From: Dehalococcoidia bacterium
Lineage (GTDB): Bacteria; Chloroflexota; Dehalococcoidia; Bin125
Length of the DNA: 64,000 nt
Reading direction: 5' to 3'
Assembly: GCA_965242565.1 (NCBI GenBank)
Contig: OZ251457.1
Location: 1,935,863 to 1,999,862, forward strand
The position numbers and the translations under genes were made by a program. The notes below the pieces were generated by a model. It worked only from the letters and a program-made list of their open reading frames with translations, did no database searches and was not told the origin of the DNA. Positions 3,935 through 41,381 of this stretch are shown one piece after another (the first letter of the stretch is position 1; every line of letters starts with the position of its first letter).

Positions 3935-4080
3935 CGACCACTCCCGAACAAACCCGAACAACGCCGACCAAACCTGACCACGACCGACCACCGCCGGCCA
4001 GGGAAAACACGAAGATCGCCGGAGCACACCACCTGACCACTCCCGAACAAACCCGAACAACGCCGACCAAACCTGACCAC
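3935..4080. repeat. 46-bp perfect direct repeat 'gaccactcccgaacaaacccgaacaacgccgaccaaacctgaccac' (3935-3980 and 4034-4080)
   Basis: Two identical copies about 53 bp apart, ending about 65 bp upstream of the PBP start codon. The related motif 'aaacctgaccac/ctctgaccaac' recurs at 27480-27540 upstream of the RM gene. Confidence 0.6.
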
Positions 4081-4145
4081 CCCCTGCTGTGGCGCACGGC
4101 GCGCGGGCGCGGTACCGTAAGGACGGCGGGTGCGCAGGCATTGCC

Positions 4146-6476
4146 ATGCGAGTTGGTTGGGCGGCGCGGCGAGCAGCACTGCTCGCCGCATTCCTCGCGG
4201 CGCTGATCTCGAGCGCGTGCATCTTCGGCGGCGAGTCGGAGCGCGACCTCTCCGAGTACTTTCCGCAAGCCCAGCAGCAGGCGCAGCAGCAGCCCGACCA
4301 ACCAGCCGCCCCCGCCGCGCAGCAGCAAACCCAGCCCGGCTCAGCGCTGCCGCCGCTGGAGCGGCTCGAAGACACCTCGCGCGCGCCGGTCAGCGCGCTC
4401 GAAGCCGTCCAGCGCTTCTTCCACCTGCTCGCCACCGACCGCCTCGCCGAGGCTTGGACCACCATCAGCGTCGAGGGCAAAGAGCGCTACGACGCGGAGC
4501 GCTTCGCGCAGCGCTACCGCGACATCTGGGCCGAGGCGACGATCCGCGGCTTCAGCTGGGAGATCGTCGAGGGCGACGACGTCAACGCGCCCGCCTTCGA
4601 CGTGATTCTGCGCTACCAGACGACCTTTTTCGGCGAGATCGAGGAGCGCGTCTTCGCTCCCGTCCTGCGCCAGCCTCACTGGGTCGTCGACTGGTCGCCC
4701 AATCTGATCTTCGACGGCCTCGGACCCGAGGGCTTCCTGATCCACACGCTGGTCGAAGTGCCCGAGCGCGGCCGCATCCTCGACCGCAACGGCGAGGTGC
4801 TGGCGGGCGAGGCGCAGGTGGCGATTGTGGGCGTGCATTGGGACGTGGTGACGGACGAGGATTTCGTGATCGATTTCTTCGTGGAGCGGCTGGGCATGGA
4901 TGAGGCGGTGGTGCGCTCGCTGATCTACCAGGACGTTCCGAGTTATCAGTTTCTGCCGGTGGCGGAGTTGCCGATCGGCACGCCCGAGGAGCTGATTGCG
5001 GAGTACGACCAGCTTTCCGAGCACGGCATTCTGGTCAGCCGCGACACGCGGCGCTGGTATCCCCACGGCGAGCTGGCCTCGCATGTCGTCGGCTACCTCC
5101 AGGAGATCAACGCCGAGGAACTGGAGCAGCGCTTCACCGAGGGCTACCGCGCGGGCGACCGGATCGGGCGCGACGGCATCGAGCACTCGTTCGAGAACGC
5201 GCTGGCCGGGCGGCGCGGCGGCTCGCTGGTGATCCTCGACGCGAGCGGGCGGCCGATCCGCGAGATCACCGTCCGCCCCGCCGTGCCCGGCTCCGATGTC
5301 CGCCTCACGCTCGATCTGCGCGTGCAGCAGCTGGCCGAGGCCGCGCTCGGCGAGCAGCCCGGCGCCGCCGTCGCGCTCGATCCCCGCAACGGCCAGATCA
5401 TCGCCATGGCTTCCTATCCGCGCATCGACCCCAACGCCATCACCGACGGCTTCACCCAGGCGGAAGTCGATCTCTACTTCAACGACGAGCGCCAGCCGTT
5501 CATCAACCGCGCGGTCGAACAGGTCTACGCGCCCGGCTCGACCTTCAAGTCGATCACCCTCGCCGCCGCACTCGAAGAAGGCGGCTACGAGGTCAGCGAC
5601 CGGCTCGATTGCCCGGTCTCCTGGATGGGCGTGGGCGACCAGCCGCTGCGCAACTGGAAAGACACCGACCAGGGCTTGATCAGTCTGGCGCGCGCTCTGG
5701 CCGAGTCCTGCAACACCGTCTTCTACGAAATCGGCCTCCAGCTGGACCGCCGCGACGACCGTTTGCTGCCCTCGATCGCGGCCGGTTTCGGCTTCGGCGC
5801 GCCCACCGGCGTGGTCGGGCTGGCCGAGGAATCCGGCGTCAACCCGTCGCCCGCCTGGAAGCGCGCCGCGCTCAACGAGCCCTGGTACACCGGCGACACG
5901 CTCAACACCAGCATCGGCCAGGGCTTCGTCGCCGTCACCCCGCTGCAAATGGCCAACGCCTACGCCGCGCTCGCCACCAGCGGCGTGCTCTTCACGCCCG
6001 TCATCGTCCACTCGATCGAGCCGCGCGGCGCGCCGCCGGAGCCGATCGAGCGCCGCGCGATCAACGTGCTGCCCGTCTCCGCCGAAACACTGAGCCAGCT
6101 CAAGGCCGCCCTGCGCGGGGTCGTCTCCCAGCCCTTCGGCACGGGTTGGGGACCGTTCAACGGCAGCGCCCTGCGTGTCGCCGGCAAGTCGGGCACCGCC
6201 GAAGATCAGGTGATTGACGCCGAAACGATCGCCACCGTCGACGAAGCGCAGCAGGCCGCCCAACAGCAGGCCGGCCAGCAGTCGGAGCAGGAACAGCCGC
6301 CCGAGCAGGTCGGCCCCTTCTTCACCCACGCCTGGTTCGCCGCCTGGGCCAACTACGACGACCCCAGACTGGTCGTGGCGATCGTGCTCGACGACGGCAA
6401 GTCGGGCGCGGACGACGCCGGACCGATCGCCCGTCGCGTGCTGGAAGGCGCAATCCTCACCGGCGCGGTACCGTGA
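4146..6476 (+). CDS. Class B penicillin-binding protein (PBP2-like transpeptidase) with NTF2-like N-terminal domain
   Basis: Signal/TM segment MRVGWAARRAALLAAFLAALISSACIF. Transpeptidase motifs STFK (APGSTFKSITL), SxN (LNTSIGQG) and KSG (GKSGTAE). Q-rich low-complexity linkers. Start ATG 4146 is preferred over 4089. Confidence 0.85.
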   Translation: MRVGWAARRAALLAAFLAALISSACIFGGESERDLSEYFPQAQQQAQQQPDQPAAPAAQQQTQPGSALPPLERLEDTSRAPVSALEAVQRFFHLLATDRLAEAWTTISVEGKERYDAERFAQRYRDIWAEATIRGFSWEIVEGDDVNAPAFDVILRYQTTFFGEIEERVFAPVLRQPHWVVDWSPNLIFDGLGPEGFLIHTLVEVPERGRILDRNGEVLAGEAQVAIVGVHWDVVTDEDFVIDFFVERLGMDEAVVRSLIYQDVPSYQFLPVAELPIGTPEELIAEYDQLSEHGILVSRDTRRWYPHGELASHVVGYLQEINAEELEQRFTEGYRAGDRIGRDGIEHSFENALAGRRGGSLVILDASGRPIREITVRPAVPGSDVRLTLDLRVQQLAEAALGEQPGAAVALDPRNGQIIAMASYPRIDPNAITDGFTQAEVDLYFNDERQPFINRAVEQVYAPGSTFKSITLAAALEEGGYEVSDRLDCPVSWMGVGDQPLRNWKDTDQGLISLARALAESCNTVFYEIGLQLDRRDDRLLPSIAAGFGFGAPTGVVGLAEESGVNPSPAWKRAALNEPWYTGDTLNTSIGQGFVAVTPLQMANAYAALATSGVLFTPVIVHSIEPRGAPPEPIERRAINVLPVSAETLSQLKAALRGVVSQPFGTGWGPFNGSALRVAGKSGTAEDQVIDAETIATVDEAQQAAQQQAGQQSEQEQPPEQVGPFFTHAWFAAWANYDDPRLVVAIVLDDGKSGADDAGPIARRVLEGAILTGAVP

Positions 6477-9271: not shown

Positions 9272-12200
9272 ATGATCCACATCACCACGGAACGAGCCCG
9301 CCGCCTGATCGCGCTGGCGATGCTCTGCGCGCTGGCGGCGGTCGTCGCCCTCGCCCTCTCCGGACGCACGGATCCGCTCTATCGGCTGGTCGGCGCGGTT
9401 GACGCGCACGCCTCCGTGACCGTGACAGCCGAAGACGCCGCCGCAATCACCATCCCGCCCAACCCCGACGACGCGGGCGCCGCGATCAGCGCGCGCGTCG
9501 TGCCGCAGCAGGAGCTGCCGCCCGCGCCGGCGCAGTTCCCGGACTACCTGGGGGCGTGGGAGTTCAGCATTGAGGGCGGCATCGATGGTGCGGCGACGCT
9601 GCGCGCGCCGGCACCCGATGTGGACGGCGCATGGACTGTGGTTGTCTGGGTCGACGGCGAGTGGCAGCTCACACCGTTCGCCGTCGAGGGCGGAACGATC
9701 GTCGCTCCGCTCGTACCGCCCGACCTCAATCTCGGGCGGATTAGCCGATGGGCTGGCGCCGTCGTAGGGTGCTTCGGCGATCCGATCAAGTGCGCCGGGG
9801 ACCTGGCGGGCGTCGCGTCCGATTGCATCGCAAACGTCGCGAAATGCACAGTCGCCAGGATCACGGCGCATTGGGAACTGACCAACGCCTTCTGGGAAGC
9901 CGCCGTTGAGGGCACCCGGATCGTGGTCGGTGAGGACTCGGTCGTCTACTCCATCGTCAAAGGTTCAGTTGGCACACTCGTCGAGATCAGCGATGCAGCG
10001 AAAGAGAAGTTCAGGGAGGCCACGACCGATCTGCTGAGCTTCGTGTTAGGCCAGCCTACGCCGATCCGCTGCCGACCCGATGACCGATCGATTATCTACA
10101 CGCCGAGTGCCTGGCAGGAGGTGCTCGACGGCTGCGCCCAGCAGACCTCCGACGGCTCGCTGCTGCGGGTCAAGAACATGCGCCGCTTCTGGGTGCAAGT
10201 CTGCCCCTCCAACACGCGCAATGTCGAGCGACGCGGCGCATTCGATCTTTTCGGTCCGCTCTCCAACTGCCGCGGCGTTGAGGGCGGCACAATGCTCGGC
10301 CCGAGCGCCGAAGCCGCCTGGGATGCTGACGACAACGCCGCGCTCAACGTCAACGCCTACTTCACGCCCCGCGCCGCCCTGATCACGCTCACCGACTGGA
10401 TCCTCTCCGCCGTGGGCATCGGCGACTTCGGCGGCAAGGTCGGCATGCTGCTCAGCGTGCTCGAGTCGCTGCGCTCGATCGACGAAGTCCAGAACGTCAT
10501 CCAGGCGGTCGAGCAGGGCCGGATCGCGGATGCCTTCGAGCGCTTCGCCGCATTGATCCGCAACGAAGTCGCCCGCGGGCGCGTGATCGAACTGCTGGCC
10601 AAATCCGGGATCGTCCAGACACTCGGCGTACATCTCTCGGCCGACGCAATCAAGGCCGCCGTTGGTTGGGCCGCAGTGGTTGAGCTGAGTCTTGATGTCG
10701 CCAACCTTGCAACCCTCCGAACCCGCTCCAACGGCTACGCCGGCTCCGTCTCGTTCCGTTCGCTTCGCGCCGCGACTCCACGCGCCGAACAGGTGCGGCA
10801 GGCGGGCGGCGAAATGGAGCGCGTCGAGCAAACGCGCCGCGCCAGCGACCGCACCGCTGTCGAACCGCCCACCACCGAGCGCGCCGCGCCCGATCACGTG
10901 CTGATCCGGGAGGTTGGCACAATCGACGTCTTCCTCACCCGAATCGCCGCCGGCAAACGCTTCAAGCGCCTGCTGCTCAACCCGGCGGTCTTCGAGAGCT
11001 ACGGCTTCGACTGGCAGTCGGTGCGCGATGTGAGCGCCGAGGAAATTGGCCGCTGGGCGCACAGCAGCCTCGTACGGCTGGAAGGCGATTACCGGGTCTG
11101 GCAGCTCTTCCCCGACGGCGACGAAGGCGAGCGGCGCTGGCTCGACATCACCGCCGAACAGTTCGTCGCAGCCGGCTTCGACTGGGACTCCGTGGCGGAG
11201 ATCAACCGCACCGAGTTCGAGGCCTACGACGAAGGCCGCCCGGTCACCGCCGCCGAACTCGGCCTGGCCGGCGCGCCGCCCACCGCCGGCGGCGCGCTGC
11301 GGTTCGTCGCCGATGTCGGCGACCGCACCCTCACCATCGGGGAGCACTCCGGCAATGTCATCCTCCCCGCGGCCGTCGGCGGTCGCGCGCCCTACACCTA
11401 CCGGCTCTCGCCGCCCTCCGGGATGAGCTTCAACCCCGCAACGCGCCGGTTCGGCGGCATCCCCAACGGGCCCGCCGGCGATCACACGCTCAGCTACCGC
11501 GCAACCGACGGCGTCGGAAATGAGGTTCGCGCCGATTTCGCCATCTCCATCGTCTCAGACTTGCAGCGCGATCCGTCTCCTTCGGCGGGTGGCAGTCGCG
11601 CGCAAGCAGTCACGGTCGGTGATCATCATGCCTGCGCGCTGCTCGACTCGGGCGCGATCGAGTGCTGGGGACGCAACTACTACGGCCAGGCGGACGCGCC
11701 GGGCGGGTCGTTCAGCGCCGTCAGCGCGGGCGGGAGGCACACCTGCGGGCTGCGCACGAGCGGCGCGGTCGAGTGCTGGGGAGACAACTACTACGGCCAG
11801 GCGGACGCGCCGGGCGGGTCGTTCAGCGCCGTTAGCGCGGGCGACTGGCACACCTGCGGGCTGCGCACGAGCGGCGCGGTTGAGTGCTGGGGAAACAACG
11901 ACTCCGGCCAGGCGGACGCGCCGGGCGGGTCGTTCAACGCCGTCAGCGCGGGCGAGTGGCACACCTGCGGGCTGCGCGCGAGCGGCGCGGTCGAGTGCTG
12001 GGGATGGAACCGCTACGGCCGGACGGACGCGCCGGGCGGGTCGTTCAGCGCCGTTAGCGCGGGCGGGTTGCACACCTGCGGGCTGCGCGCGAACGGTGAG
12101 ATCGAGTGCTGGGGATGGAACGACGATGGCCAGACGAACGCGCCGGGCGGAGCGTTCAGCGCCGTCAGCGCGGGCGGGAGCCACACCTGCGGGCTGCGCA

Positions 12201-13306
12201 CCAGCGGCGCGATCGAGTGCTGGGGATACAACGGCTCCGGCCAGGCGGACGCGCCGGGCGGGTCGTTCAGCGCCGTCAGCGCAGGCGGGGACCACACCTG
12301 CGGGCTGCGCGCGAGCGGCGCGATCGAGTGCTGGGGAGACAACGACGACGGCCAGACGGACGCGCCGGGCGGGTCGTTCAACGCCGTCAGCGCGGGTTGG
12401 TGGCACACCTGCGGGCTGCGCACGAGCGGCGCGGTCGAGTGCTGGGGAGACAACTACTACGGCCAGGCGGACGCGCCGGGCGGGTCGTTCAGCGCCGTCA
12501 GCGCGGGCGCGAACCACACCTGCGGGCTGCGCGCGAGCGGCGCGATCGAGTGCTGGGGGGACAACGGCTCCGGCCGGGCGGACGCGCCGGGCGGGTCGTT
12601 CAGCGCCGTCAGCGCGGGCGTGTTCCACACCTGCGGGCTGCGCACGAGCGGCGCGGTCGAGTGCTGGGGAGCCAACCGCTACGGCCAGGCGGACGCGCCG
12701 GGCGGGTCGTTCAGCGCCGTCAGCGCGGGCGAGTGGCACACCTGCGGGCTGCGCGCGAGCGGCGTGATCGAGTGCTGGGGCTACACGTTCGACGGCCAGG
12801 CGCAGCCGCCGGCGGGCAGACACACCGCGATCAGCTCCGGCGCCCACCACGCCTGCGCGCTGAGCGAGGACGGAACCGTCGCCTGCTGGATGATCTACAA
12901 CGGCGCGGCCGATGTCCCCGCCTGGCTGCGCGGAGTGGAGAGCGCCGACGGCGCGATACAGGCGTTCGAGACCGAGCCGGCGCGCGGGCGGATCATCGCC
13001 CGCCGCCTGCCGGATGGCCGCACTGAGTTCGGCTGGCTGCCCGTGGGCGCGGACGATCGCATTCTGCCGCGCTCCCGCTACTTCCCCACCGATGCGCAGC
13101 CCACCCGCTGGCTGCGCTCCAGCCCGATCGAGGTGAGCGGCATCGTGATCGGCCGGATCAGCGCCCGCCTGCTCGCCGACGGGCGAATCGAATTCGCCTT
13201 CACCCCGACCAGCGGCGAGCGCATTCTGCCGCCCTCGCGCTTCTTCCCGGCGGACGCGGCAGTCGGCCGCTGGCTGCGCAGCACGGAGATCGAGCTCAGC
13301 CGCTAG
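9272..13306 (+). CDS. Large secreted RCC1-repeat (beta-propeller-like) protein, paralog of 37604-41381
   Basis: Signal peptide (MIHITTERARRLIALAMLCALAAVVALALSG). Central domain shared with the paralog. About 11 tandem 37-aa repeats GGSFSAVSAGxxHTCGLRxSGAxECWGxNxxGQADAP. Two C-terminal about 50-aa repeats (GRIIARRLPDGRTEFGWLP...RWLRSSPIEVSG). Alternative start at 9203 or 9230. Confidence 0.65.
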   Translation: MIHITTERARRLIALAMLCALAAVVALALSGRTDPLYRLVGAVDAHASVTVTAEDAAAITIPPNPDDAGAAISARVVPQQELPPAPAQFPDYLGAWEFSIEGGIDGAATLRAPAPDVDGAWTVVVWVDGEWQLTPFAVEGGTIVAPLVPPDLNLGRISRWAGAVVGCFGDPIKCAGDLAGVASDCIANVAKCTVARITAHWELTNAFWEAAVEGTRIVVGEDSVVYSIVKGSVGTLVEISDAAKEKFREATTDLLSFVLGQPTPIRCRPDDRSIIYTPSAWQEVLDGCAQQTSDGSLLRVKNMRRFWVQVCPSNTRNVERRGAFDLFGPLSNCRGVEGGTMLGPSAEAAWDADDNAALNVNAYFTPRAALITLTDWILSAVGIGDFGGKVGMLLSVLESLRSIDEVQNVIQAVEQGRIADAFERFAALIRNEVARGRVIELLAKSGIVQTLGVHLSADAIKAAVGWAAVVELSLDVANLATLRTRSNGYAGSVSFRSLRAATPRAEQVRQAGGEMERVEQTRRASDRTAVEPPTTERAAPDHVLIREVGTIDVFLTRIAAGKRFKRLLLNPAVFESYGFDWQSVRDVSAEEIGRWAHSSLVRLEGDYRVWQLFPDGDEGERRWLDITAEQFVAAGFDWDSVAEINRTEFEAYDEGRPVTAAELGLAGAPPTAGGALRFVADVGDRTLTIGEHSGNVILPAAVGGRAPYTYRLSPPSGMSFNPATRRFGGIPNGPAGDHTLSYRATDGVGNEVRADFAISIVSDLQRDPSPSAGGSRAQAVTVGDHHACALLDSGAIECWGRNYYGQADAPGGSFSAVSAGGRHTCGLRTSGAVECWGDNYYGQADAPGGSFSAVSAGDWHTCGLRTSGAVECWGNNDSGQADAPGGSFNAVSAGEWHTCGLRASGAVECWGWNRYGRTDAPGGSFSAVSAGGLHTCGLRANGEIECWGWNDDGQTNAPGGAFSAVSAGGSHTCGLRTSGAIECWGYNGSGQADAPGGSFSAVSAGGDHTCGLRASGAIECWGDNDDGQTDAPGGSFNAVSAGWWHTCGLRTSGAVECWGDNYYGQADAPGGSFSAVSAGANHTCGLRASGAIECWGDNGSGRADAPGGSFSAVSAGVFHTCGLRTSGAVECWGANRYGQADAPGGSFSAVSAGEWHTCGLRASGVIECWGYTFDGQAQPPAGRHTAISSGAHHACALSEDGTVACWMIYNGAADVPAWLRGVESADGAIQAFETEPARGRIIARRLPDGRTEFGWLPVGADDRILPRSRYFPTDAQPTRWLRSSPIEVSGIVIGRISARLLADGRIEFAFTPTSGERILPPSRFFPADAAVGRWLRSTEIELSR
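11580..12790. repeat. Intragenic tandem repeat, period 111 nt x about 11 (encodes the RCC1-like 37-aa units)
   Basis: Near-identical units (...ggcgggtcgttcagcgccgtcagcgcgggcg...cacacctgcgggctgcgc...gagtgctgggg...). They are coding repeats, not a CRISPR array. Confidence 0.8.
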
Positions 13307-14583: not shown

Positions 14584-16449
14584 ATGCGTTCATTCGTCAT
14601 CCGCCGTCGCAATGCGTTCACCGCGCTGGCGCTGGCCGCGCTCTGCGCCGCAGCGCTGATCCCGCCCCTCGCGCTCTCGCAAGGCCGCCAGGGCTGCAAC
14701 GACCTGCTCGCCTACTACCGCGAAGCCGCGCGCGCGCCGCAGATCTACTACGAAGAGGCCGTCGAGGAAGAGGAAGCAGCGGTGGCGGATGAGACGGAAG
14801 AGGCGGATTTCGGCTTTGCAGAAGACGCGATGTCAGGCGACGGTGCGATGCCGGCGAACGACGGTTTCGCCCTCCCGCAGTCAGACGGCGGCCCGCCCGC
14901 TGACCTTGGCGAGCGCTCCGAAACCGGCACCAACGTGCAGGTCGCCGGCGTTGACGAATCCGACATCGTCAAGACCAACGGCTCCGAAATCTTCGTCCTG
15001 CGCGACGACTCCCTGGTCGTCGTCTCCGTGCGAGAGGACCCGCCGCAGGTCATCGGCGGGCTGGCTCTCGACCGCGACGCGTCGACTTCTGCCGGCGAGC
15101 CGCGCGAAATGCTGTTGGCCGGTGAGCGCCTGCTGATCTTCCGCAACGTGATCTACGACAGCCGCTTCTGGTCGCAGCCGGGCGTGCAGATCATGGAAGT
15201 GGACGTGAGCGATCCGGCGAGCCCTCGCGCGCTGCGCACGCTCGACGCCTACGGCGAGTTTGTCACCGCGCGGTTGGCCGGCTCCGGCGTGCGAGTCGTG
15301 ATGAGCCACGACGGCGCCGACAGCCCCACGCTCACACCGCGGCCGGGCGAGACATGGGAGCAGCGGATCCGGCGGAGCGGACTCTCCACCTGGCTGCCCC
15401 TCTACACCCTGACCGATCGTGAAGGAGCGCGGAGCTGGGGCCTGCTCACCCCCTGCGACGCGGTGCAAATGCCGGCGACCGAGGACCGGCGCTACGGCAA
15501 CACGGAGACCACGCTGCTACTCAGCTTCAACCTCGCCGAAGGCATCGCCGACTGGAACGCGGCCGGCTTCGTCGGCTCGACCGACGCCGTCTACGCCGGC
15601 TCCAACTCGCTCTACATCGCCTCCTCGTTCGGCGGCTGGATCCCCAACACGCGCATTCACCGCTGGGACACGCCGCCCGGCGGCGCACCCGTCTACCAGG
15701 GCACCGCGGAGGTCGAGGGCTGGCTGATCAACCAGTTCGCAATGAGCGAATACCGCGGCAGGCTGCGCGTCGCCACCACCATCGAGGGCTCTTGGCCAAT
15801 CAGCAGCCGACTCACGATCTTCGACATCGGCGATGACGGCCTGACCGAACTCTCGAAGCTGGACGGGCTGGGCCCGTCCGAGCGGATCTACGCCGTCCGT
15901 TTCCTCGGCGAGCTCGGCTACGTCGTCACCTTCCGTCTGATCGACCCGCTCTACGTGCTCGATCTCTCCGATCCCGAAAACCCCGCCGTCGCCGGCGAGC
16001 TCAAAATCCCCGGCTTCTCTTCCTACCTGCACCCGCTCGGCGGCGGCCTGCTGCTCGGCGTGGGCCAGAACGCCGACCCGCACACCGGACAGCCGCTCGG
16101 ACTACAGGTCTCGCTCTTCGACGTCTCCGATCCCGCCGAACCGACGCGCCTGGACCAGGTCGATCTCTCGGCGGGTTCGCGCAACGTGACATTCGAGCAC
16201 CGCGCCTTCACCTACCACCAGGGCCGCGCCTACATCCCCGCCTCGCCCACCAACGACCTCTTCGCCGTGCGCGTCACGTCCGAAGCCCTGGAACTCGAAC
16301 GCCAAATCACCGCCCAGGACGAAGTGCTGCGCAGCCTGCCCGTCGGCGACCGCCTGCACCTCCTGCTCGAAGGTTCGCTCGCCACCCACGACCTGGCCAC
16401 CCTCGACCTGCTCAGCGGCGTCTACCTCGTCTCGCCGAGCAGCCGTTGA
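14584..16449 (+). CDS. Secreted beta-propeller domain protein (Beta_propel-like family)
   Basis: Signal peptide MRSFVIRRRNAFTALALAALCAAALIPPLALS. C-terminal motifs IYAVRFLGELGYVVTFRLIDPLYVLDLSDPENP...LGVGQNAD are typical of the 'beta propeller domain' family. Confidence 0.5.
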   Translation: MRSFVIRRRNAFTALALAALCAAALIPPLALSQGRQGCNDLLAYYREAARAPQIYYEEAVEEEEAAVADETEEADFGFAEDAMSGDGAMPANDGFALPQSDGGPPADLGERSETGTNVQVAGVDESDIVKTNGSEIFVLRDDSLVVVSVREDPPQVIGGLALDRDASTSAGEPREMLLAGERLLIFRNVIYDSRFWSQPGVQIMEVDVSDPASPRALRTLDAYGEFVTARLAGSGVRVVMSHDGADSPTLTPRPGETWEQRIRRSGLSTWLPLYTLTDREGARSWGLLTPCDAVQMPATEDRRYGNTETTLLLSFNLAEGIADWNAAGFVGSTDAVYAGSNSLYIASSFGGWIPNTRIHRWDTPPGGAPVYQGTAEVEGWLINQFAMSEYRGRLRVATTIEGSWPISSRLTIFDIGDDGLTELSKLDGLGPSERIYAVRFLGELGYVVTFRLIDPLYVLDLSDPENPAVAGELKIPGFSSYLHPLGGGLLLGVGQNADPHTGQPLGLQVSLFDVSDPAEPTRLDQVDLSAGSRNVTFEHRAFTYHQGRAYIPASPTNDLFAVRVTSEALELERQITAQDEVLRSLPVGDRLHLLLEGSLATHDLATLDLLSGVYLVSPSSR

Positions 16450-37603: not shown

Positions 37604-40600
37604 TTAACGAACCAGGAGCCCCCAACACCGGACAGTGCCGTCGTCGCGCAGCCCACAGGTGTGTCCGCCACCGGCGCTAACGGCGGCGAAGCGGTCGCTC
37701 GGCGCTTCCGTTTGGCCGGAGCCGTTCGTTCCCCAGCACTCGACAGCACCGCTCTCGCGCAGCCCGCAGGTGTGCCCGCGACCGGCGCTAACGGCGGCGA
37801 AGCGGTCGCTCGGCGCATCCGTTTGGCCGGAGCCGTTCGTTCCCCAGCACTCGACAGCACCGTTCTCGCGCAGCCCGCAGGTGTGCCAGCCACCGGCGCT
37901 AACGGCGGTGAAGCGGCCGCTCGGCGCATCCGTTTGGCCGGAGCCGTTCGTTCCCCAGCACTCGATGGCACCGCTCTCGCGCAGTCCGCAGGTATGGAAG
38001 CTGCCGGCGCTGACGGCGGTGAAGCGGCCGCTCGGCGCGTCAGCCTGTCCTCTATCGCCGGAAGCATAGGGGAGCTCCTCGGCTCCCCAGCACTCGACGG
38101 TGCCATCATAGCGCAGTCCGCAGGTGTGCTGGTCGCCTGCGGTAACGTCTCTGAAGCGTCCGCTAGGTGCGTCTATTTGGCCGAACTCACCGTATCCCCA
38201 GCATTCAACAGTGCCAGTTTCGCGCAGTCCGCAGGCGTGGCTGACAAGCTCGCTTCCATGGTACGAGCCAGTAGAACCAGTGCTGACGGCTATGAACCGC
38301 CCGTCAGGACTGCCGTATTGGGTGTATCCCCAACATTCGACGGTACCATCGTCGCGCAGCCCGCAGGTGCTGGTTGAGCTGGCGCTAATCGCGGAGAAGC
38401 GACGATTTTTAGGTGTGGACTCTCCGTATTCGTTCCGTCCCCAGCATTCGACGGTGCCGTCGTCGCGCAGCCCGCAGGTGTGATGCGTACCGGCGCTGAT
38501 GGCGGTAAACCGGCCACTAGGTGGGTCGGATGTGCCTCCCCAGCATTCGACAGTGCCGTTGTTGCGAAGCCCACAGGTGTGGGACCTACCAGCGCTGATG
38601 GCAGTAAACCGGCCGTTAGGTGAGTCGGATATGGTTCCCCAGCATTCGACAGTGCCGTCGTCGCGCAACCCACAAGTGTGAGAGCCACCCGTGCTGACGG
38701 CGGTGAATTGGCCACCGGGGTCATCGGACTGGCCTGCTCCGTTGCTCCCCCAACATTGAACGGTGCCATCATCGCGCAACCCACAGGTGTGGACGGAGGG
38801 GGTGTCGTCACTCCAAGTACCGGGCTGGCCCCAGCCGGCGCTAATCGCGGTAAATCGTCCTCTCGGCGCGTCGGACTGACCCAGATCGTTGTCTCCCCAG
38901 CATTCGACAGTGCCGTCGTCGCGCAGTCCGCAAGTGTGCCAGGCACCCGAGCTGATCGCGCTGAAGCGGCCGGCCGGAGCGTCGGCCCAGTCGCTGAAGT
39001 CACTTCCCCAGCATTCGACAGTACCGTCGTCGCGCAGTCCGCAAGTGTAGCCGCCGGCGCTGACGGCCTTAAAAGCACCAGGCTGCGGATGTCTCTGTCC
39101 AGAGCTGTTGTTTCCCCAACACTCGATTTCCCCGCTCACGCGCAGCCCGCAGGTGTGCCCACTGCCAGCGCTGACGGCCTGGAACACATCTTCGCCGCCC
39201 GCCAATTCCACACGCAGCTCGAACTCTCCGGTTTGCCCTGCACCGCGATTCGCCACCTCGATCGTGTACAGGCCGGCCTCCATCTCCGCGCGAGCCCAGT
39301 CCGACGCCTCCGTGAAGACGCGCACCGGCTTCGCCGTGCGACTCGTCTCCCGCGAGACGTAGACCGCGGAGCTCTGCTCCGAATCCAGCCCAAGAGTGGC
39401 CTCCTGCGCCTCATCCAGCTCGAACCGGTAGTAGCGCGCATAACTCCCGTCGAGCCGCTGCGACTGGCAGGCATGATTCCAGCGCCCCTTCACCGTGCCC
39501 TCGGTGATATCCCCGCCCCAGCACACCGACGGCGGCACGTCATATGCGACTGTGCCCAGACGCTCCTCGTCGTTGGCGATCAGCACCTTGAAGAACTCGA
39601 CACCACGCTGCACTCCATTCACGAGCTTCTCGCCCACCTTGTAGGCCCCGTACACTTTGATCAGCGCAGCCTTCTTAATCGTGACGCCAGCGTGCTGAGC
39701 GGCAGCGATTATCAGGTCGACCAGCGCTTCGCCCATCTCCGGCGTCAGGAGCACACCCGCCACCGTCTTCAGCGCCGCCTCACGGTTGCCGTTGTCCCAC
39801 TGGTTAAACGCTTGCACGAGGTCCTCGCTGCGCAGCAGTACTGATACCAGGTTGGTCAAGGCGGGTATCGGCACAGCGAAACCGATGACCTCTTCAACCA
39901 TCTCCTTGATCGGTTGGTAGAACACTGTCATGCCCGCCGCGGTCCAGGTCATCTCGGCATTCAACCGAACGGCCCCATCGCGCGTCGGCCGCCAGCTGCC
40001 GACTGCTCCCGGCGCGAGCAGGGTGCCCTCGTGATCGCTCAGCCACTTGTAGAGATCGACCGAAGTAGCGTGCTCAGGGTTGCCCTCAATCGGCCGCACT
40101 TCAAACCAGATGTGGCGCGGATTGCGCGCCAACAGCAGCGGCCCGTCGTCCGTCCGTTGAGCGCACCCTTTCAGGTACACGCCGACGATCCGATCGATGA
40201 GACTGCCGCCGGAGGGGTTGCGAACGGTCACGGTATCGTCGGGCTTCTCGCAGATGATCTGGTCTTTCAGCCCCAACTGCTCCGCTCCCCAATCCACCGT
40301 CCAGGTGATCCCGTCCCAGATGCCCTCCCCAATCGTCGTCACGCCTTCGACTATGTATCCGCCGATGTCTTCGAGGCCCTGGGCGACATCGCCGATCACC
40401 GGAAGACCCTTGACCTTCTTCCAGAAGCTCAGCGAGTCGGTTTGGACGATGATCTGATCGCCCTCGACCGTGAACGGTTCGAGAATCCAGTGTTCGCCGT
40501 TGTAGTGCGCCAGGAACCAGGTTTCGTCTTCGTCGGCCGGCGACGGCAGCGACAACGTCACCGTCCCGGTCAGCTCACCCTCCACCTCGAAGTCCCACGC

Positions 40601-41381
40601 GCCCAACGTCTCGGTTCCCCCGGCGGGCAAGGGCGGCAATTCTTCCTCGGAGACGACCCGAGCGGTGATCTTCGCGCCCACCGACGCCGCGCCGGGCGGC
40701 ACCGTGATCGCCGCTCCATCTTCCGCTACCGCGGTACCGCCGCCCGCGCCCACCTCGCCCTCCGTCGGCTCTGGCCGCTCCGCCGGCACGGCGATCAGGC
40801 TGCTGCGCAGCCACTTGCTCGCGCTGTTGTCAATCAGCCGCCGTGTCAGAAAGCGATTCGTCGGAAAAACATCGTCGCCCCCGCTCTGCTCCCCGCGCAC
40901 ATCCTCGCCCCAGCCCGGCCGGAAACCGAAGCCAATCCGCGTCAGCCGCCCGTTGTCGTCCACTTCGGCGCGGGCGATGATCCGCCCGCGCACGCCGTCC
41001 TCTGACCCGTCGGCGTCGGGAATCAGGATCTCGCTGCTGCGCAGCCAGCGCCCGGCGCTGCTCTCGATCAGCCGCTGCGTCAGGAAGCGGTTCGTCGGGA
41101 AGAGGTCGTCCGGCCCGTCGCCGCCTCCGCGCACATCCTCGCCCCAGGCCGGCCGAAAGCCGAACTCCACCCGCGTCAGCCGGCCGTCGTCGTCCACCCA
41201 CGGGGCCACTACGATCCGACCGTCGACGCTACTCACACTGTCATCCTGCGCATTCGCAGGCTGTGCCAAAACAAGCGCGGCGACGGCTGCGACAAGCGCC
41301 GCCAGCCCTATCAGCAGCGCCTTAGTGAGGGTTTTTACCCCCCCCCCCCCCGAGATCCATGCAAACGTGCAGACGCATGAG
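37604..41381 (-). CDS. Large secreted RCC1-repeat protein (paralog of 9272-13306, permuted domain order); reading frame disrupted or phase-shifted at a G14 tract near the 5' end
   Basis: Body frame: signal-peptide-like VKTLTKALLIGLAALVAAVAALVLAQPANAQDD. Two about 50-aa repeats (GRIIARAEVDDNGRLTRIGFGFRP...WLRSS). Central domain homologous to the paralog. About 18 RCC1-like 37-aa repeats at the C-terminal end. Candidate ATGs at 41381/41360 (SD gaggggaa) are +1 out of frame with the body because of the poly-G tract (14 G on the coding strand). Confidence 0.6.
41338..41351. repeat. Homopolymeric tract C14 (G14 on coding strand) between candidate start codon and signal-peptide coding region
   Basis: Direct count: 41338-41351 is all C. 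It is the only homopolymer of 10 nt or longer seen in the window. Confidence 0.9.

Follow-up and report, generated by a model that had tools for sequence, protein, structure and literature searches.

Two genes in the window, the whole 64-kb stretch of DNA analysed here, carry a new domain family, REP, inside an already known kind of protein. The best explanation for these genes, A and B, which we hold with moderate confidence, is that they are anciently diverged paralogs coding for large Sec-exported multidomain surface proteins made of portable modules. Export and surface location are predicted from signal peptides read by eye, and the organism is an uncultured high-GC bacterium of the Dehalococcoidia (Chloroflexota). 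Open reading frames and translations confirm that both genes of the original prediction are real. All of the elements it named are present in the sequence, although several of its numbers were wrong, and its interpretation is supported in part: the novelty of the repeat, the recombination and the poly-G tract stand, whereas the circular permutation does not.

Architecture of genes A and B

Pfam and local HMMs resolve gene A into a signal peptide or anchor, a ZU5-like domain, CenC, two FDW motifs, He_PIG, 12 RCC1 blades and two REP units, in that order:

9272-13306, plus strand: gene A, 1344 aa (open reading frame and translation)
9272..9364, plus strand: hydrophobic N-terminus MIHITTERARRLIALAMLCALAAVVALALSG, either signal peptide or signal anchor (read from sequence)
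9422..9709, plus strand: CenN, a remote ZU5/GAIN-like beta-sandwich
10061..10759, plus strand: CenC, composed of a beta region and then a helical bundle (local jackhmmer/HMM; AF2 secondary structure)
10922..11341, plus strand: FDW, two copies of the motif GFDW..SV...EF (local HMM)
11372..11551, plus strand: borderline He_PIG Ig-like domain (Pfam PF05345 at 24.0-25.2 bits, cut-off 24)
11600..12922, plus strand: array of 12 RCC1-like blades (12 stretches of Pfam RCC1_2; 12 units with our own HMM; TRF)
12986..13297, plus strand: C-terminal REP pair (units 12986-13135 and 13151-13297)

The FDW motif is without a Pfam match and is also found by local HMM in P0041, P0043 and P0047-P0050. In addition to REP, gene A may contain a membrane anchor. 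Similar N-terminal hydrophobic anchors were seen in more distant central-domain relatives in the same search.

Gene B runs from a short leader through a poly-G tract, a signal peptide, two REP units, a ZU5-like domain, CenC and a PPC-like module to 14 RCC1 blades:

37604 to about 41378, minus strand: gene B (open reading frame and sequence; main frame 37604-41338, ATG with Shine-Dalgarno-like sequence at 41378)
41338..41351, minus strand: poly-G tract, 14 G then TAAAA, between the conserved Shine-Dalgarno-ATG leader and the signal peptide
41249..41338, minus strand: Sec-type signal peptide VKTLTKALLIGLAALVAAVAALVLAQPANA (VKTLTK...AQPANA), with an AxA site before QDD (read from sequence)
40787..41221, minus strand: REP pair (units 41021-41221 and 40787-40987; HMM, alignment)
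40442..40732, minus strand: CenN, ZU5-like, in which the two family motifs, LAHYNGEHW and DSLSFW, are preserved
39593..40258, minus strand: CenC (pairwise alignments and local HMM)
39191..39520, minus strand: PPC-like module (segment profile matching proteins whose corresponding repeats are PF04151 PPC)
37619..39184, minus strand: array of 14 RCC1-like blades (14 Pfam stretches; own HMM and count of CWG motifs; TRF)

The 5′ end first proposed for gene B, 41381, adjoins the ATG at 41378. The REP units of B are N-terminal and measure 67 aa each, lengthened by insertions, and the PPC-like module has no direct match in Pfam. The syntenic ortholog of gene B is L002/P0042, and in the B orthologs P0044 and P0049 an equivalent signal peptide lies immediately downstream of the ATG. 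Some of the database entries stem from gene calls that are truncated or carry a frameshift, and a few architectures (e.g. P0043) could be assembly chimeras.

The REP module

The repeat of about 50 aa said to be common to A and B is borne out by BLASTP, in which the REP of A matches that of B with E = 2.6e-4, and by a profile from 55 REP units that matches both B units (HMM, i-E 1.5e-7 and 1.6e-6). Its suspected novelty holds as well, as REP is undescribed in Pfam (no match at E<=10), NCBIfam, PHROGs and PDB sequences; PADLOC gave no match either, and a fold search returned no convincing one. REP is a small beta module, usually in tandem, with invariant Trp, Arg and aromatic positions, and the tandem pair would fold as one compact, beta-rich unit. 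It occurs almost only in Dehalococcoidia MAGs, which account by title for 22 of the 24 REP-encoding genome loci, the others being from Chloroflexota (1/24) and Acidimicrobiales (1/24). REP is a portable cassette that is not specific to RCC1 proteins: architectures such as RCC1x14-REPx2 and REPx2-RCC1x12/13 stand beside PPC-REP, and Pfam verifies fusions to LRR, ANK, PPC, the trypsin-like protease domain Trypsin_2 and, twice, the ABC substrate-binding domain Peripla_BP_4.

Most likely, REP is a surface-retention or docking tag, which would keep exported proteins on the cell surface by binding an envelope polymer or docking to a partner. In a cell with a single membrane, a substrate-binding protein whose cleavable signal peptide is lost needs to be retained, which fits REP as a tether. 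In this respect REP resembles SLH, CWB2, LysM and dockerin modules, which are likewise small, typically tandem, placed at either terminus and joined to many unrelated extracellular domains per lineage; neither its sequence nor its fold is similar to theirs. Unlike these, REP is internal in one protein, L032 (fn3-like-REPx2-LRR), which has its own C-terminal hydrophobic segment. That REP is not always terminal counts against a tag, and the internal position in L032 would suit a binding domain equally well. Such a domain, lectin- or CBM-like and directed at an external target (a polysaccharide substrate, or glycans of a host or matrix) instead of self-retention, is unlikely but deserves weight, given that REP is itself a small tandem beta module with those invariant positions and that fusions to enzymes and sugar-binding proteins are typical of carbohydrate-binding modules as well. 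However, REP does not significantly resemble any family of CBMs or lectins, and its fusions to ANK, LRR, RCC1 and otherwise untethered substrate-binding proteins are more simply explained by a common retention or docking role.

Bayer et al. 2018 (PMC6306507) describe eukaryotic-like ANK, LRR, TPR and WD40 proteins in bacteria of sponges, Chloroflexi among them. In Dehalococcoidia MAGs, the repeat proteins fused to REP (ANK, LRR and RCC1) resemble these in domain content, and neither RCC1 nor REP is mentioned in that study. Unlike the SAR202 genomes described there, which are reported to be without peptidoglycan synthesis genes (PMC6306507), the window encodes a class B PBP along with A and B.

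The poly-G tract of gene B

As originally noted, one paralog carries a poly-G tract. Its 14 G in gene B compare with a next-longest G/C run of 6 in the window. Slipped-strand changes in this G14, between start codon and signal peptide, would switch the expression of B stochastically. We infer such a switch because of the conservation of the tract and its differences in length, and the tract is probably a real one. Related genes in other genomes have 9, 12, 14, 14 and 15 G at this 5′ place. The position of the tract is shared by L016, with 9 G, L003, with 12 G, L002, with 14 G, and L018, with 15 G; L029-L031 have no tract there. At 14 G the main open reading frame cannot be read from the ATG at 41378; a tract of 13 or 16 G would bring the two into frame. 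Among the REP genes, 5/6 tracts are out of frame with the conserved Shine-Dalgarno-ATG, which means either that most are OFF or that the chosen start codon is wrong. The proposed switch is favoured by conserved position and by length differences across genomes, and is disfavoured by the frame of most tracts.

There is perhaps one chance in four, in our judgement, that the tract is no DNA-level switch and is instead a tolerated Gly-coding stretch read from the upstream ATG 41440, a place where transcription slips, or an error in assembling the homopolymer. Consistent with this, the main open reading frame is open at 14 G from ATG 41440, which is in frame, the L003 gene call also runs through its own tract from an upstream ATG, and the two closest sequences, the window and L002, are identical in length at 14 G each. 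On the other hand, the upstream in-frame starts are not conserved: neither ATG 41440 nor its counterparts recur, as the corresponding codon of L016 lies in another frame with a stop after it and L018 would have to start at a different GTG, whereas the Shine-Dalgarno-ATG leader is conserved in every case. The tract has also been kept as pure G despite a 4-13% difference in flanking DNA among orthologs, although Gly codons could vary, and it is found in independent assemblies from different projects. Finally, orthologs without a tract begin directly at the signal peptide.

A phase-variable switch in B would resemble the contingency loci of, for example, Neisseria and Campylobacter, in which poly-G genes vary in phase by slipped-strand mispairing (Orsi et al. 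2010, PMC2831843). Likewise, a long G run lies in the 5′ coding region of a predicted surface-protein gene, tract length varies among related genomes and shifts the frame, and one frame meets an immediate stop. Unlike those loci, B belongs to an uncultured Chloroflexota host; our literature search found no report of phase variation for this uncultured lineage.

Central region, blade arrays and domain order

The homology claimed for the central domains is upheld over a shared region of about 410-450 aa, with 29% identity over 413 columns (E = 8e-26) and 34% by MAFFT. Their novelty is upheld in part, as CenC has no match in Pfam or PDB, whereas the first ~100 aa, CenN, form a remote ZU5/GAIN-like beta-sandwich with moderate scores. 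Ankyrin ZU5 is at the top of the CenN profile search against PDB, ZU5 is the most frequent weak Pfam match (13.8 bits against a cut-off of 21), and hhalign aligns 86 columns of CenN and ZU5 with a probability of 37%; the model of the central domain has a pLDDT of just 73. CenC always follows CenN across the family (local HMM), and the pair recurs widely, and without annotation, as the base of membrane-anchored or exported proteins. The motif H...(D/E)xLS[FW] is conserved in B and most relatives. CenN of A is without the family's LxHY and (D/E)xLS[FW] motifs, which A has lost. As the conserved motif appears to sit where ZU5, FIIND and GAIN domains cleave themselves, a B-type CenN may process or release its protein in a ZU5-like manner. 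The motif is without the canonical HFS or HL-T, which counts against cleavage.

Zhang et al. 2012 (PMC3482391) describe ZU5 autopeptidases at the N-terminus of polymorphic toxins and of large surface proteins in bacteria. As in that superfamily (ZU5, FIIND, GAIN/GPS, Nup98; PMC3482391), the predicted fold is similar, the domain follows the export signal and precedes propellers or adhesion modules, and a conserved Ser-containing motif marks its C-terminal edge. Unlike it, CenN scores below the Pfam ZU5 threshold, its motif is (D/E)xLS[FW]GW and not HFS, HL-T or CxH, it always precedes CenC, which is without a known counterpart, and gene A has no motif. Toxin domains, RHS and SpvB are absent from the A and B proteins, unlike the systems in PMC3482391.

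The RCC1-like arrays, presumed to be the ligand-binding ends, consist of 37-aa RCC1/BLIP-II-type blades. Pfam and our own HMM put their number at 12 in A (11 regular 37-aa repeats and one divergent; 298 bits against a cut-off of 22), close to the predicted figure of about 11, and at 14 in B, not about 18. The 111-nt tandem repeats are present in both genes (TRF): 11651-12816 in A (10.5 copies, 88% matches) and 3.6 copies with 93% matches in B, which also has 2.8 copies of period 99. Internal units A2-A10 share 83-96% DNA identity among themselves and <=85% with any unit of the ortholog of A, to which the non-repeat part of A is 79% identical, and blade number varies between the orthologs (12 in A versus 14). 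These comparisons bear out the suggested recombinational expansion and contraction and show that the arrays evolve in concert: internal blades are homogenised, and recombination between 111-nt repeats changes their number.

Pereira and Lupas 2022 (PMC9218822) count RCC1/BLIP-II, about 10% of their set, among the major classes of propellers that were amplified recently. The A and B arrays resemble these repetitive propellers (PF13540, PF25390; PMC9218822) in their ~37-aa blades, CWG motif, strong Pfam matches, variable blade number and closer similarity of blades inside one protein than across orthologs; BLIP-II is likewise secreted and acts as a binder, as predicted for A and B. Unlike them, A and B carry 12 and 14 blades within proteins of 1250-1350 aa that include ZU5-like, PPC, He_PIG and REP modules.

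That REP sits at opposite ends of A and B is a result of modular cassette shuffling and not of circular permutation. The two genes are ancient paralogs, and each has its own orthologs that share its architecture: for A this is P0041, for B they are P0042, P0044, P0045, P0046 and P0049. Synteny is conserved for B. An origin of B from A, or the reverse, by tandem duplication and end loss that moved the REP pair between termini is very improbable: the three shared blocks, Cen-RCC1-REP and REP-Cen-RCC1, do amount to a rotation, but the central domains are just 29-34% identical, the B REP units are a distinct long subtype common to B-type orthologs, and the intervening modules differ (FDW and He_PIG in A, PPC in B). 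Non-rotational orders also occur in the family (REP-RCC1, RCC1-REP, Cen-REP-RCC1, PPC-REP, REP-LRR, REP-ANK and fn3-REP-LRR), and the syntenic locus of A in L007 codes for nothing more than a signal peptide with 15 RCC1 blades and a REP pair.

Genes A and B and their RCC1-like arrays

The two large genes for putatively exported RCC1-repeat proteins lie among ordinary metabolic genes, in a window with a GC content of 68.9%:

9272–13306, + strand: gene A, 1344 aa
37604–41338, − strand: main open reading frame of gene B, from its stop at 37604 up through 41338
4077–6476: class B penicillin-binding protein (PBP) near A, with Transpeptidase, PBP_dimer and MecA_N domains
14584–16449: secreted PF09826 beta-propeller protein near A

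Both genes and their shared elements are confirmed by sequence and translation, although several numbers of the original prediction had to be corrected. The neighbourhood of A also includes glycerate kinase, acyl-CoA dehydrogenase and CoA-transferase genes, and that of B includes DUF2461, cupin and Ldh_2 genes, to which the syntenic ortholog locus L002 adds an MFS transporter; no operon partner hinting at function stands beside either gene. Searches of PHROGs, PADLOC and NCBIfam with the two proteins return nothing or only noise; they reveal no toxin domain and nothing that would indicate a role in phages, defence or toxicity, and our literature search found no description of A/B-type proteins or of REP, the tandem module that they share. 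With a class B PBP encoded in the window, the organism may plausibly have a peptidoglycan wall, and the gene suggests that this Dehalococcoidia lineage makes peptidoglycan.

The 37-aa RCC1-like repeats (blades) match the Pfam model RCC1_2 (PF13540) with 298 bits over 12 stretches in A and 318 bits over 14 stretches in B, against a cut-off of 22, which places both among the RCC1_2/RCC1-like repeat proteins (PF13540, PF25390). An HMM made from the blades of A and a count of CWG motifs give the same 12 and 14 blades, so that the earlier estimate of about 11 for A was one short and that of about 18 for B too high. RCC1 beta-propellers are canonically seven-bladed, and the 14 blades of B fit two propellers of seven. 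The predicted 111-nt period is recovered by Tandem Repeats Finder, with 10.5 copies at 88% matches in A and 3.6 copies at 93% in B, where a 99-nt tandem array is found as well.

A comparison of A with its ortholog on the related locus L004 (74% protein identity; 79% DNA identity outside the repeats) bears on how these arrays evolve. The internal units 2–10 of A are 83–96% identical to one another at the DNA level, and none of them exceeds 85% identity with an ortholog unit; the edge units pair orthologously (units 1, 11 and 12 of A with units 1, 13 and 14 of the ortholog, at 75%, 84% and 75%). With 12 blades in A and 14 in the ortholog, the sequence pattern is the one expected from concerted evolution, or from a recent amplification within the array, together with a change in copy number. 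Copy number, which had been singled out for comparison between relatives, does differ, and together with the homogeneity within the array it supports the view that these repeats are prone to recombination. The two proteins belong with the known modular surface proteins whose RCC1/BLIP-II propellers are amplified, and domain shuffling in surface proteins is likewise well known; concerted blade amplification has already been described for propellers of the RCC1/BLIP-II type (PMC9218822).

In closed MAG chromosomes several RCC1-REP genes either have their blade array broken by frameshifts or are present as short copies in tandem (L001:7193-8399, the same place as L011; L013:3263-6306; L021; L022); they represent pseudogenes or else misassembled repeats. 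As a consequence of such splitting, many REP 'proteins' in the databases are truncated gene calls beginning at MIYNGAADVPAWL.

REP and the domain orders of its carriers

REP stands as a pair at the C-terminus of A (50 + 49 aa) and as a pair at the N-terminus of B. Its presence in both genes was correctly predicted, but a length of about 50 aa does not hold for B, where two insertions bring each unit to 67 aa; both units are matched, at 1.5e-7 and 1.6e-6, by a profile made from 55 REP units. The proposed novelty of the repeat also stands, as no match is found in Pfam (for the isolated segment even at E ≤ 10), NCBIfam, PHROGs, PADLOC or, by profile search, PDB sequences, and neither sequence nor fold likeness connects REP with SLH, LysM, CWB2, SH3b, PG_binding or dockerin modules. 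Two REP searches of a collection of 5.8 billion proteins retrieve only 40 and 67 clusters, nearly all from ENA metagenome assemblies; none is named, and the four with precomputed Pfam annotation carry RCC1_2 or RLD on the adjoining blade, never on REP. A scan of one genome per species yields 24 REP loci, several genomes having more than one, and by their titles 22 belong to Dehalococcoidia MAGs, one to Chloroflexota and one to Acidimicrobiales, which places the organism of the window within or near this Dehalococcoidia group. REP is new: a domain without earlier description that acts like a portable tag, attached to many exported proteins of a single bacterial lineage. The protein of the Acidimicrobiales MAG (L019:3742-6348), with two PPC domains and, further on, two REP units, resembles one in the Dehalococcoidia MAG L020, a likeness that may reflect interphylum transfer of a REP gene. 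Among JGI metagenome contigs, a protein-profile scan with the 5′ end of B finds one distant REP-LRR gene only, in two records.

Six-frame open reading frames of all fetched loci of relatives were annotated with local HMMs, and partner domains were checked with Pfam. The resulting orders are varied.

Table. Domain architectures with REP in the fetched loci (Cen, central region; FDW, GFDW-type motif).
Signal peptide, RCC1 ×14–15, REP ×2: the commonest
REP ×2, RCC1 ×7–13
REP ×2, Cen, PPC, RCC1: B type
Cen, FDW, RCC1, REP ×2: A type
PPC, REP ×2
REP ×2, LRR
REP ×2, ankyrin
REP, trypsin-like peptidase
REP, Peripla_BP_4: two cases, both substrate-binding proteins of ABC transporters
REP with unknown domains
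fn3-like ×4, REP ×2 (internal), LRR: one protein

The last of these (L032:1-2646, equal to L033, its contig also held under GenBank WGS accession MKWU01000351.1) combines four fn3-like repeats with the internal REP pair and with LRRs, has a hydrophobic segment at its C-terminus, and is the only clear case seen of a non-terminal REP.

The modules between the blocks shared by A and B differ. A carries a He_PIG domain (PF05345, residues 701–760) that passes the cut-off of 24 only narrowly, at 24.0–25.2 bits. The PPC-like segment of B has no direct match to PF04151 at E ≤ 0.1; a profile made from it finds many proteins in which the repeats it matches belong to PF04151. One further element lies between the central domain and He_PIG of A:

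10922–11341: FDW, two copies of a ~30-aa motif (GFDW.SV.....EF)

This motif is common to the related database proteins P0041, P0043 and P0047–P0050 and has no family match.

The original prediction had taken the central domains of A and B to be homologous, as they are (29% identity over 413 columns, E = 8e-26; 34% by MAFFT), and had read the opposite domain orders as a circular permutation. An assembly artefact is rejected as the source of these orders, since the same architectures occur in orthologs of independent assemblies: that of A in P0041, and that of B in P0042, P0044, P0045, P0046 and P0049. The neighbourhood of B is conserved, and the syntenic position of A, between the PBP and acyl-CoA dehydrogenase genes, is occupied on the MAG contig L007 by a gene with only a signal peptide, 15 RCC1 blades and two REP units. 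A circular permutation describes the relation of three blocks, which are indeed rotated, and fails for the rest, because the intervening modules differ, identity is 29–34% and the family includes non-rotational orders. Taken together, the low central identity, the differing intervening modules, the separate orthologs and the varied orders show A and B as old paralogs made by domain accretion and shuffling, with REP as a portable cassette.

REP resembles SLH, CWB2, LysM and dockerin modules in being small, usually tandem, mostly terminal and joined to unrelated extracellular domains in one lineage, and by this analogy it is probably a surface-retention or docking module. Most telling are the substrate-binding proteins fused to REP, in which REP directly follows the signal peptide: once a cleavable signal peptide has been removed, such a protein must be retained at the surface of a single-membrane cell. 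A lectin-like REP directed at external targets seems to us a less likely alternative. Should REP serve retention or docking, sequence alone would be enough to list the proteins exposed on the surface of an abundant uncultured group, and ankyrin, LRR and RCC1 repeat proteins would be tied to the cell surface, where an action on hosts has long been proposed for them.

The central region and its likeness to ZU5 domains

A word-indexed protein search with the central domain of A yields 8000 candidates, none significant, and an exhaustive HMMER search with a profile of A and B retrieves 107 representatives. Local iteration within these resolves two sub-modules, CenN (~100 aa) and CenC (~230 aa), which co-occur in at least 44 of the 107, always just after an N-terminal hydrophobic segment and sometimes with a zinc ribbon before them. 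The domains that follow towards the C-terminus are PD40 and DUF5050 propellers, Laminin_G_3, beta-helix, fn3, LRR or RCC1. Carriers come from high- and low-GC organisms, and in Pfam searches of ten such relatives the module was without a match in all ten; CenN together with CenC is a broad family without a Pfam model. Low-GC carriers occur among the related proteins P0051–P0145 (for example P0079, P0083, P0088, P0105, P0108, P0126 and P0145), some of which have an N-terminal zinc ribbon preceding the membrane segment.

An AlphaFold2 model of the central domain (36 sequences, pLDDT 73) has a confident N-terminal beta-sandwich at residues 1–123 and a poor A-type insertion at 127–211, followed by a beta region and then a helical bundle. 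The whole model finds nothing below E = 1e-3 in a Foldseek search against the PDB, and its CenN part has a moderate fold similarity to solved ZU5/GAIN domains. Sequence comparisons agree weakly with a ZU5 fold of CenN: ankyrin ZU5 chains are on top when the CenN profile is run against PDB sequences (E 0.66–1.1), hhalign aligns CenN end to end with an ankyrin-3 ZU5 fragment over 86 columns at 37% probability, and ZU5 is the commonest sub-threshold Pfam match, in 5 of 27 CenN members (best E = 0.0094). CenN of B itself scores 13.8 bits against Pfam ZU5 (PF00791; E = 0.073), below the cut-off of 21. Because the likeness of fold and sequence is moderate to weak and below the Pfam threshold, CenN is called ZU5-like and is not counted among the Pfam ZU5 members. 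That the central domain is a base module of ZU5-like type is a new recognition, and naming this module with CenC would lead to better annotation of many proteins.

Two motifs are conserved in the family, LxHY..G.W and, at the C-terminal edge of CenN, (D/E)xLS[FW]GW; B has both (LAHYNGEHW and DSLSFW) and A has neither. The position of the second corresponds to the edge where ZU5, FIIND and GAIN domains self-cleave, while its sequence differs from the canonical nucleophile motifs of the ZU5 superfamily (HFS, SF-S, HL-T). In polymorphic toxins and further large surface proteins of bacteria, Zhang et al. described ZU5 autopeptidase domains at the N-terminus and proposed that ZU5 cleavage frees the protein at the cell surface (PMC3482391). 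By analogy, self-cleavage of B-type proteins is a reasonable hypothesis.

Poly-G tracts at the 5′ ends of REP genes

One paralog had also been predicted to carry a poly-G switch. The tract of B and those at the 5′ ends of REP-bearing genes on related loci are as follows:

41338–41351, − strand: B, 14 G, between a short leader and the signal peptide
L018:5879-5893: 15 G
L003:6072-6083: 12 G
L016:5928-5936: 9 G
L013:2194-2207: 14 G, at another REP gene, in frame with an ATG preceded by a Shine-Dalgarno-like sequence (SD-ATG)

The leader of B begins at the SD-ATG at 41378, with AGAGGGGAAAC just before, and this start is out of frame at 14 G but would be in frame at 13 or 16 G. No other run in the 64-kb window is longer than 6. 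Leaders of type I have 14 G in the window, 14 G in L002, the syntenic ortholog from another metagenome, and 15 G in L018; the two closest sequences, the window and L002, thus do not differ in tract length. Those of type II have 12 G in L003 and 9 G in L016, where 10 or 13 G would be in frame. L003, L013, L016 and L018 represent four different Dehalococcoidia genomes, and only in L013 is the SD-ATG frame kept. A further tract lies in the Dehalococcoidia MAG locus L005 (2454-2468). Here a gene for a DNA methyltransferase with an SPPY motif carries 15 G followed by TAAAAG at its extreme 5′ end, and the tract shares its frame with a GTG 4 nt upstream; judged by its sequence, this methyltransferase looks phase-variable, in the manner of a phasevarion. 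Directly after the tract, TAAAA is found in six of the seven (L002, L003, L005, L013, L016, L018 and the window), so that one of the frames meets a stop at once. The tract is absent from the orthologs on L029, L030 and L031, which begin directly with the signal peptide.

Upstream in-frame starts are present in the window (ATG 41440) and in L003; such a start was rejected as the preferred true start of B because it is not conserved in L016 or L018. A DNA-pattern scan of JGI metagenome contigs for a near-identical 5′ end of B found nothing.

A pure homopolymer kept at one position across diverged orthologs, with differing lengths, points to a slipped-strand switch, and most of the observed tracts would then be in an OFF state. 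The 5′ position, and a length and frame that differ among related genomes, are what would be expected of a contingency locus. In this sense the predicted switch of B is probably real. The recurring poly-G leader is new; no report of phase variation in Chloroflexota was found in the literature searched, and the conserved tracts would extend phase variation to this group, possibly as a new case.

Combining these elements, REP would be a shared address tag of exported proteins in a Dehalococcoidia lineage that lives with a host, the repertoire spanning proteases, transporter binding proteins and 'eukaryote-like' repeat proteins of the RCC1, ankyrin and LRR kinds, and the conserved G(n)TAAAA leader a contingency switch for single members, phasevarion-like through the methyltransferase tract. 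That an uncultured symbiont of the Chloroflexota has such a variable surface system, resembling those of pathogens, is a tentative proposal that we regard as more doubtful than probable. The accession and bin names of the MAGs hint at a possible sponge origin.

Between the window and the syntenic ortholog on L002, gene B shows 87.4% identity, compared with 95.5–95.9% for the flanking housekeeping genes, and is either fast-evolving or exchanged through recombination. Its GC3 is 0.78; that of the neighbouring genes is about 0.87–0.90.
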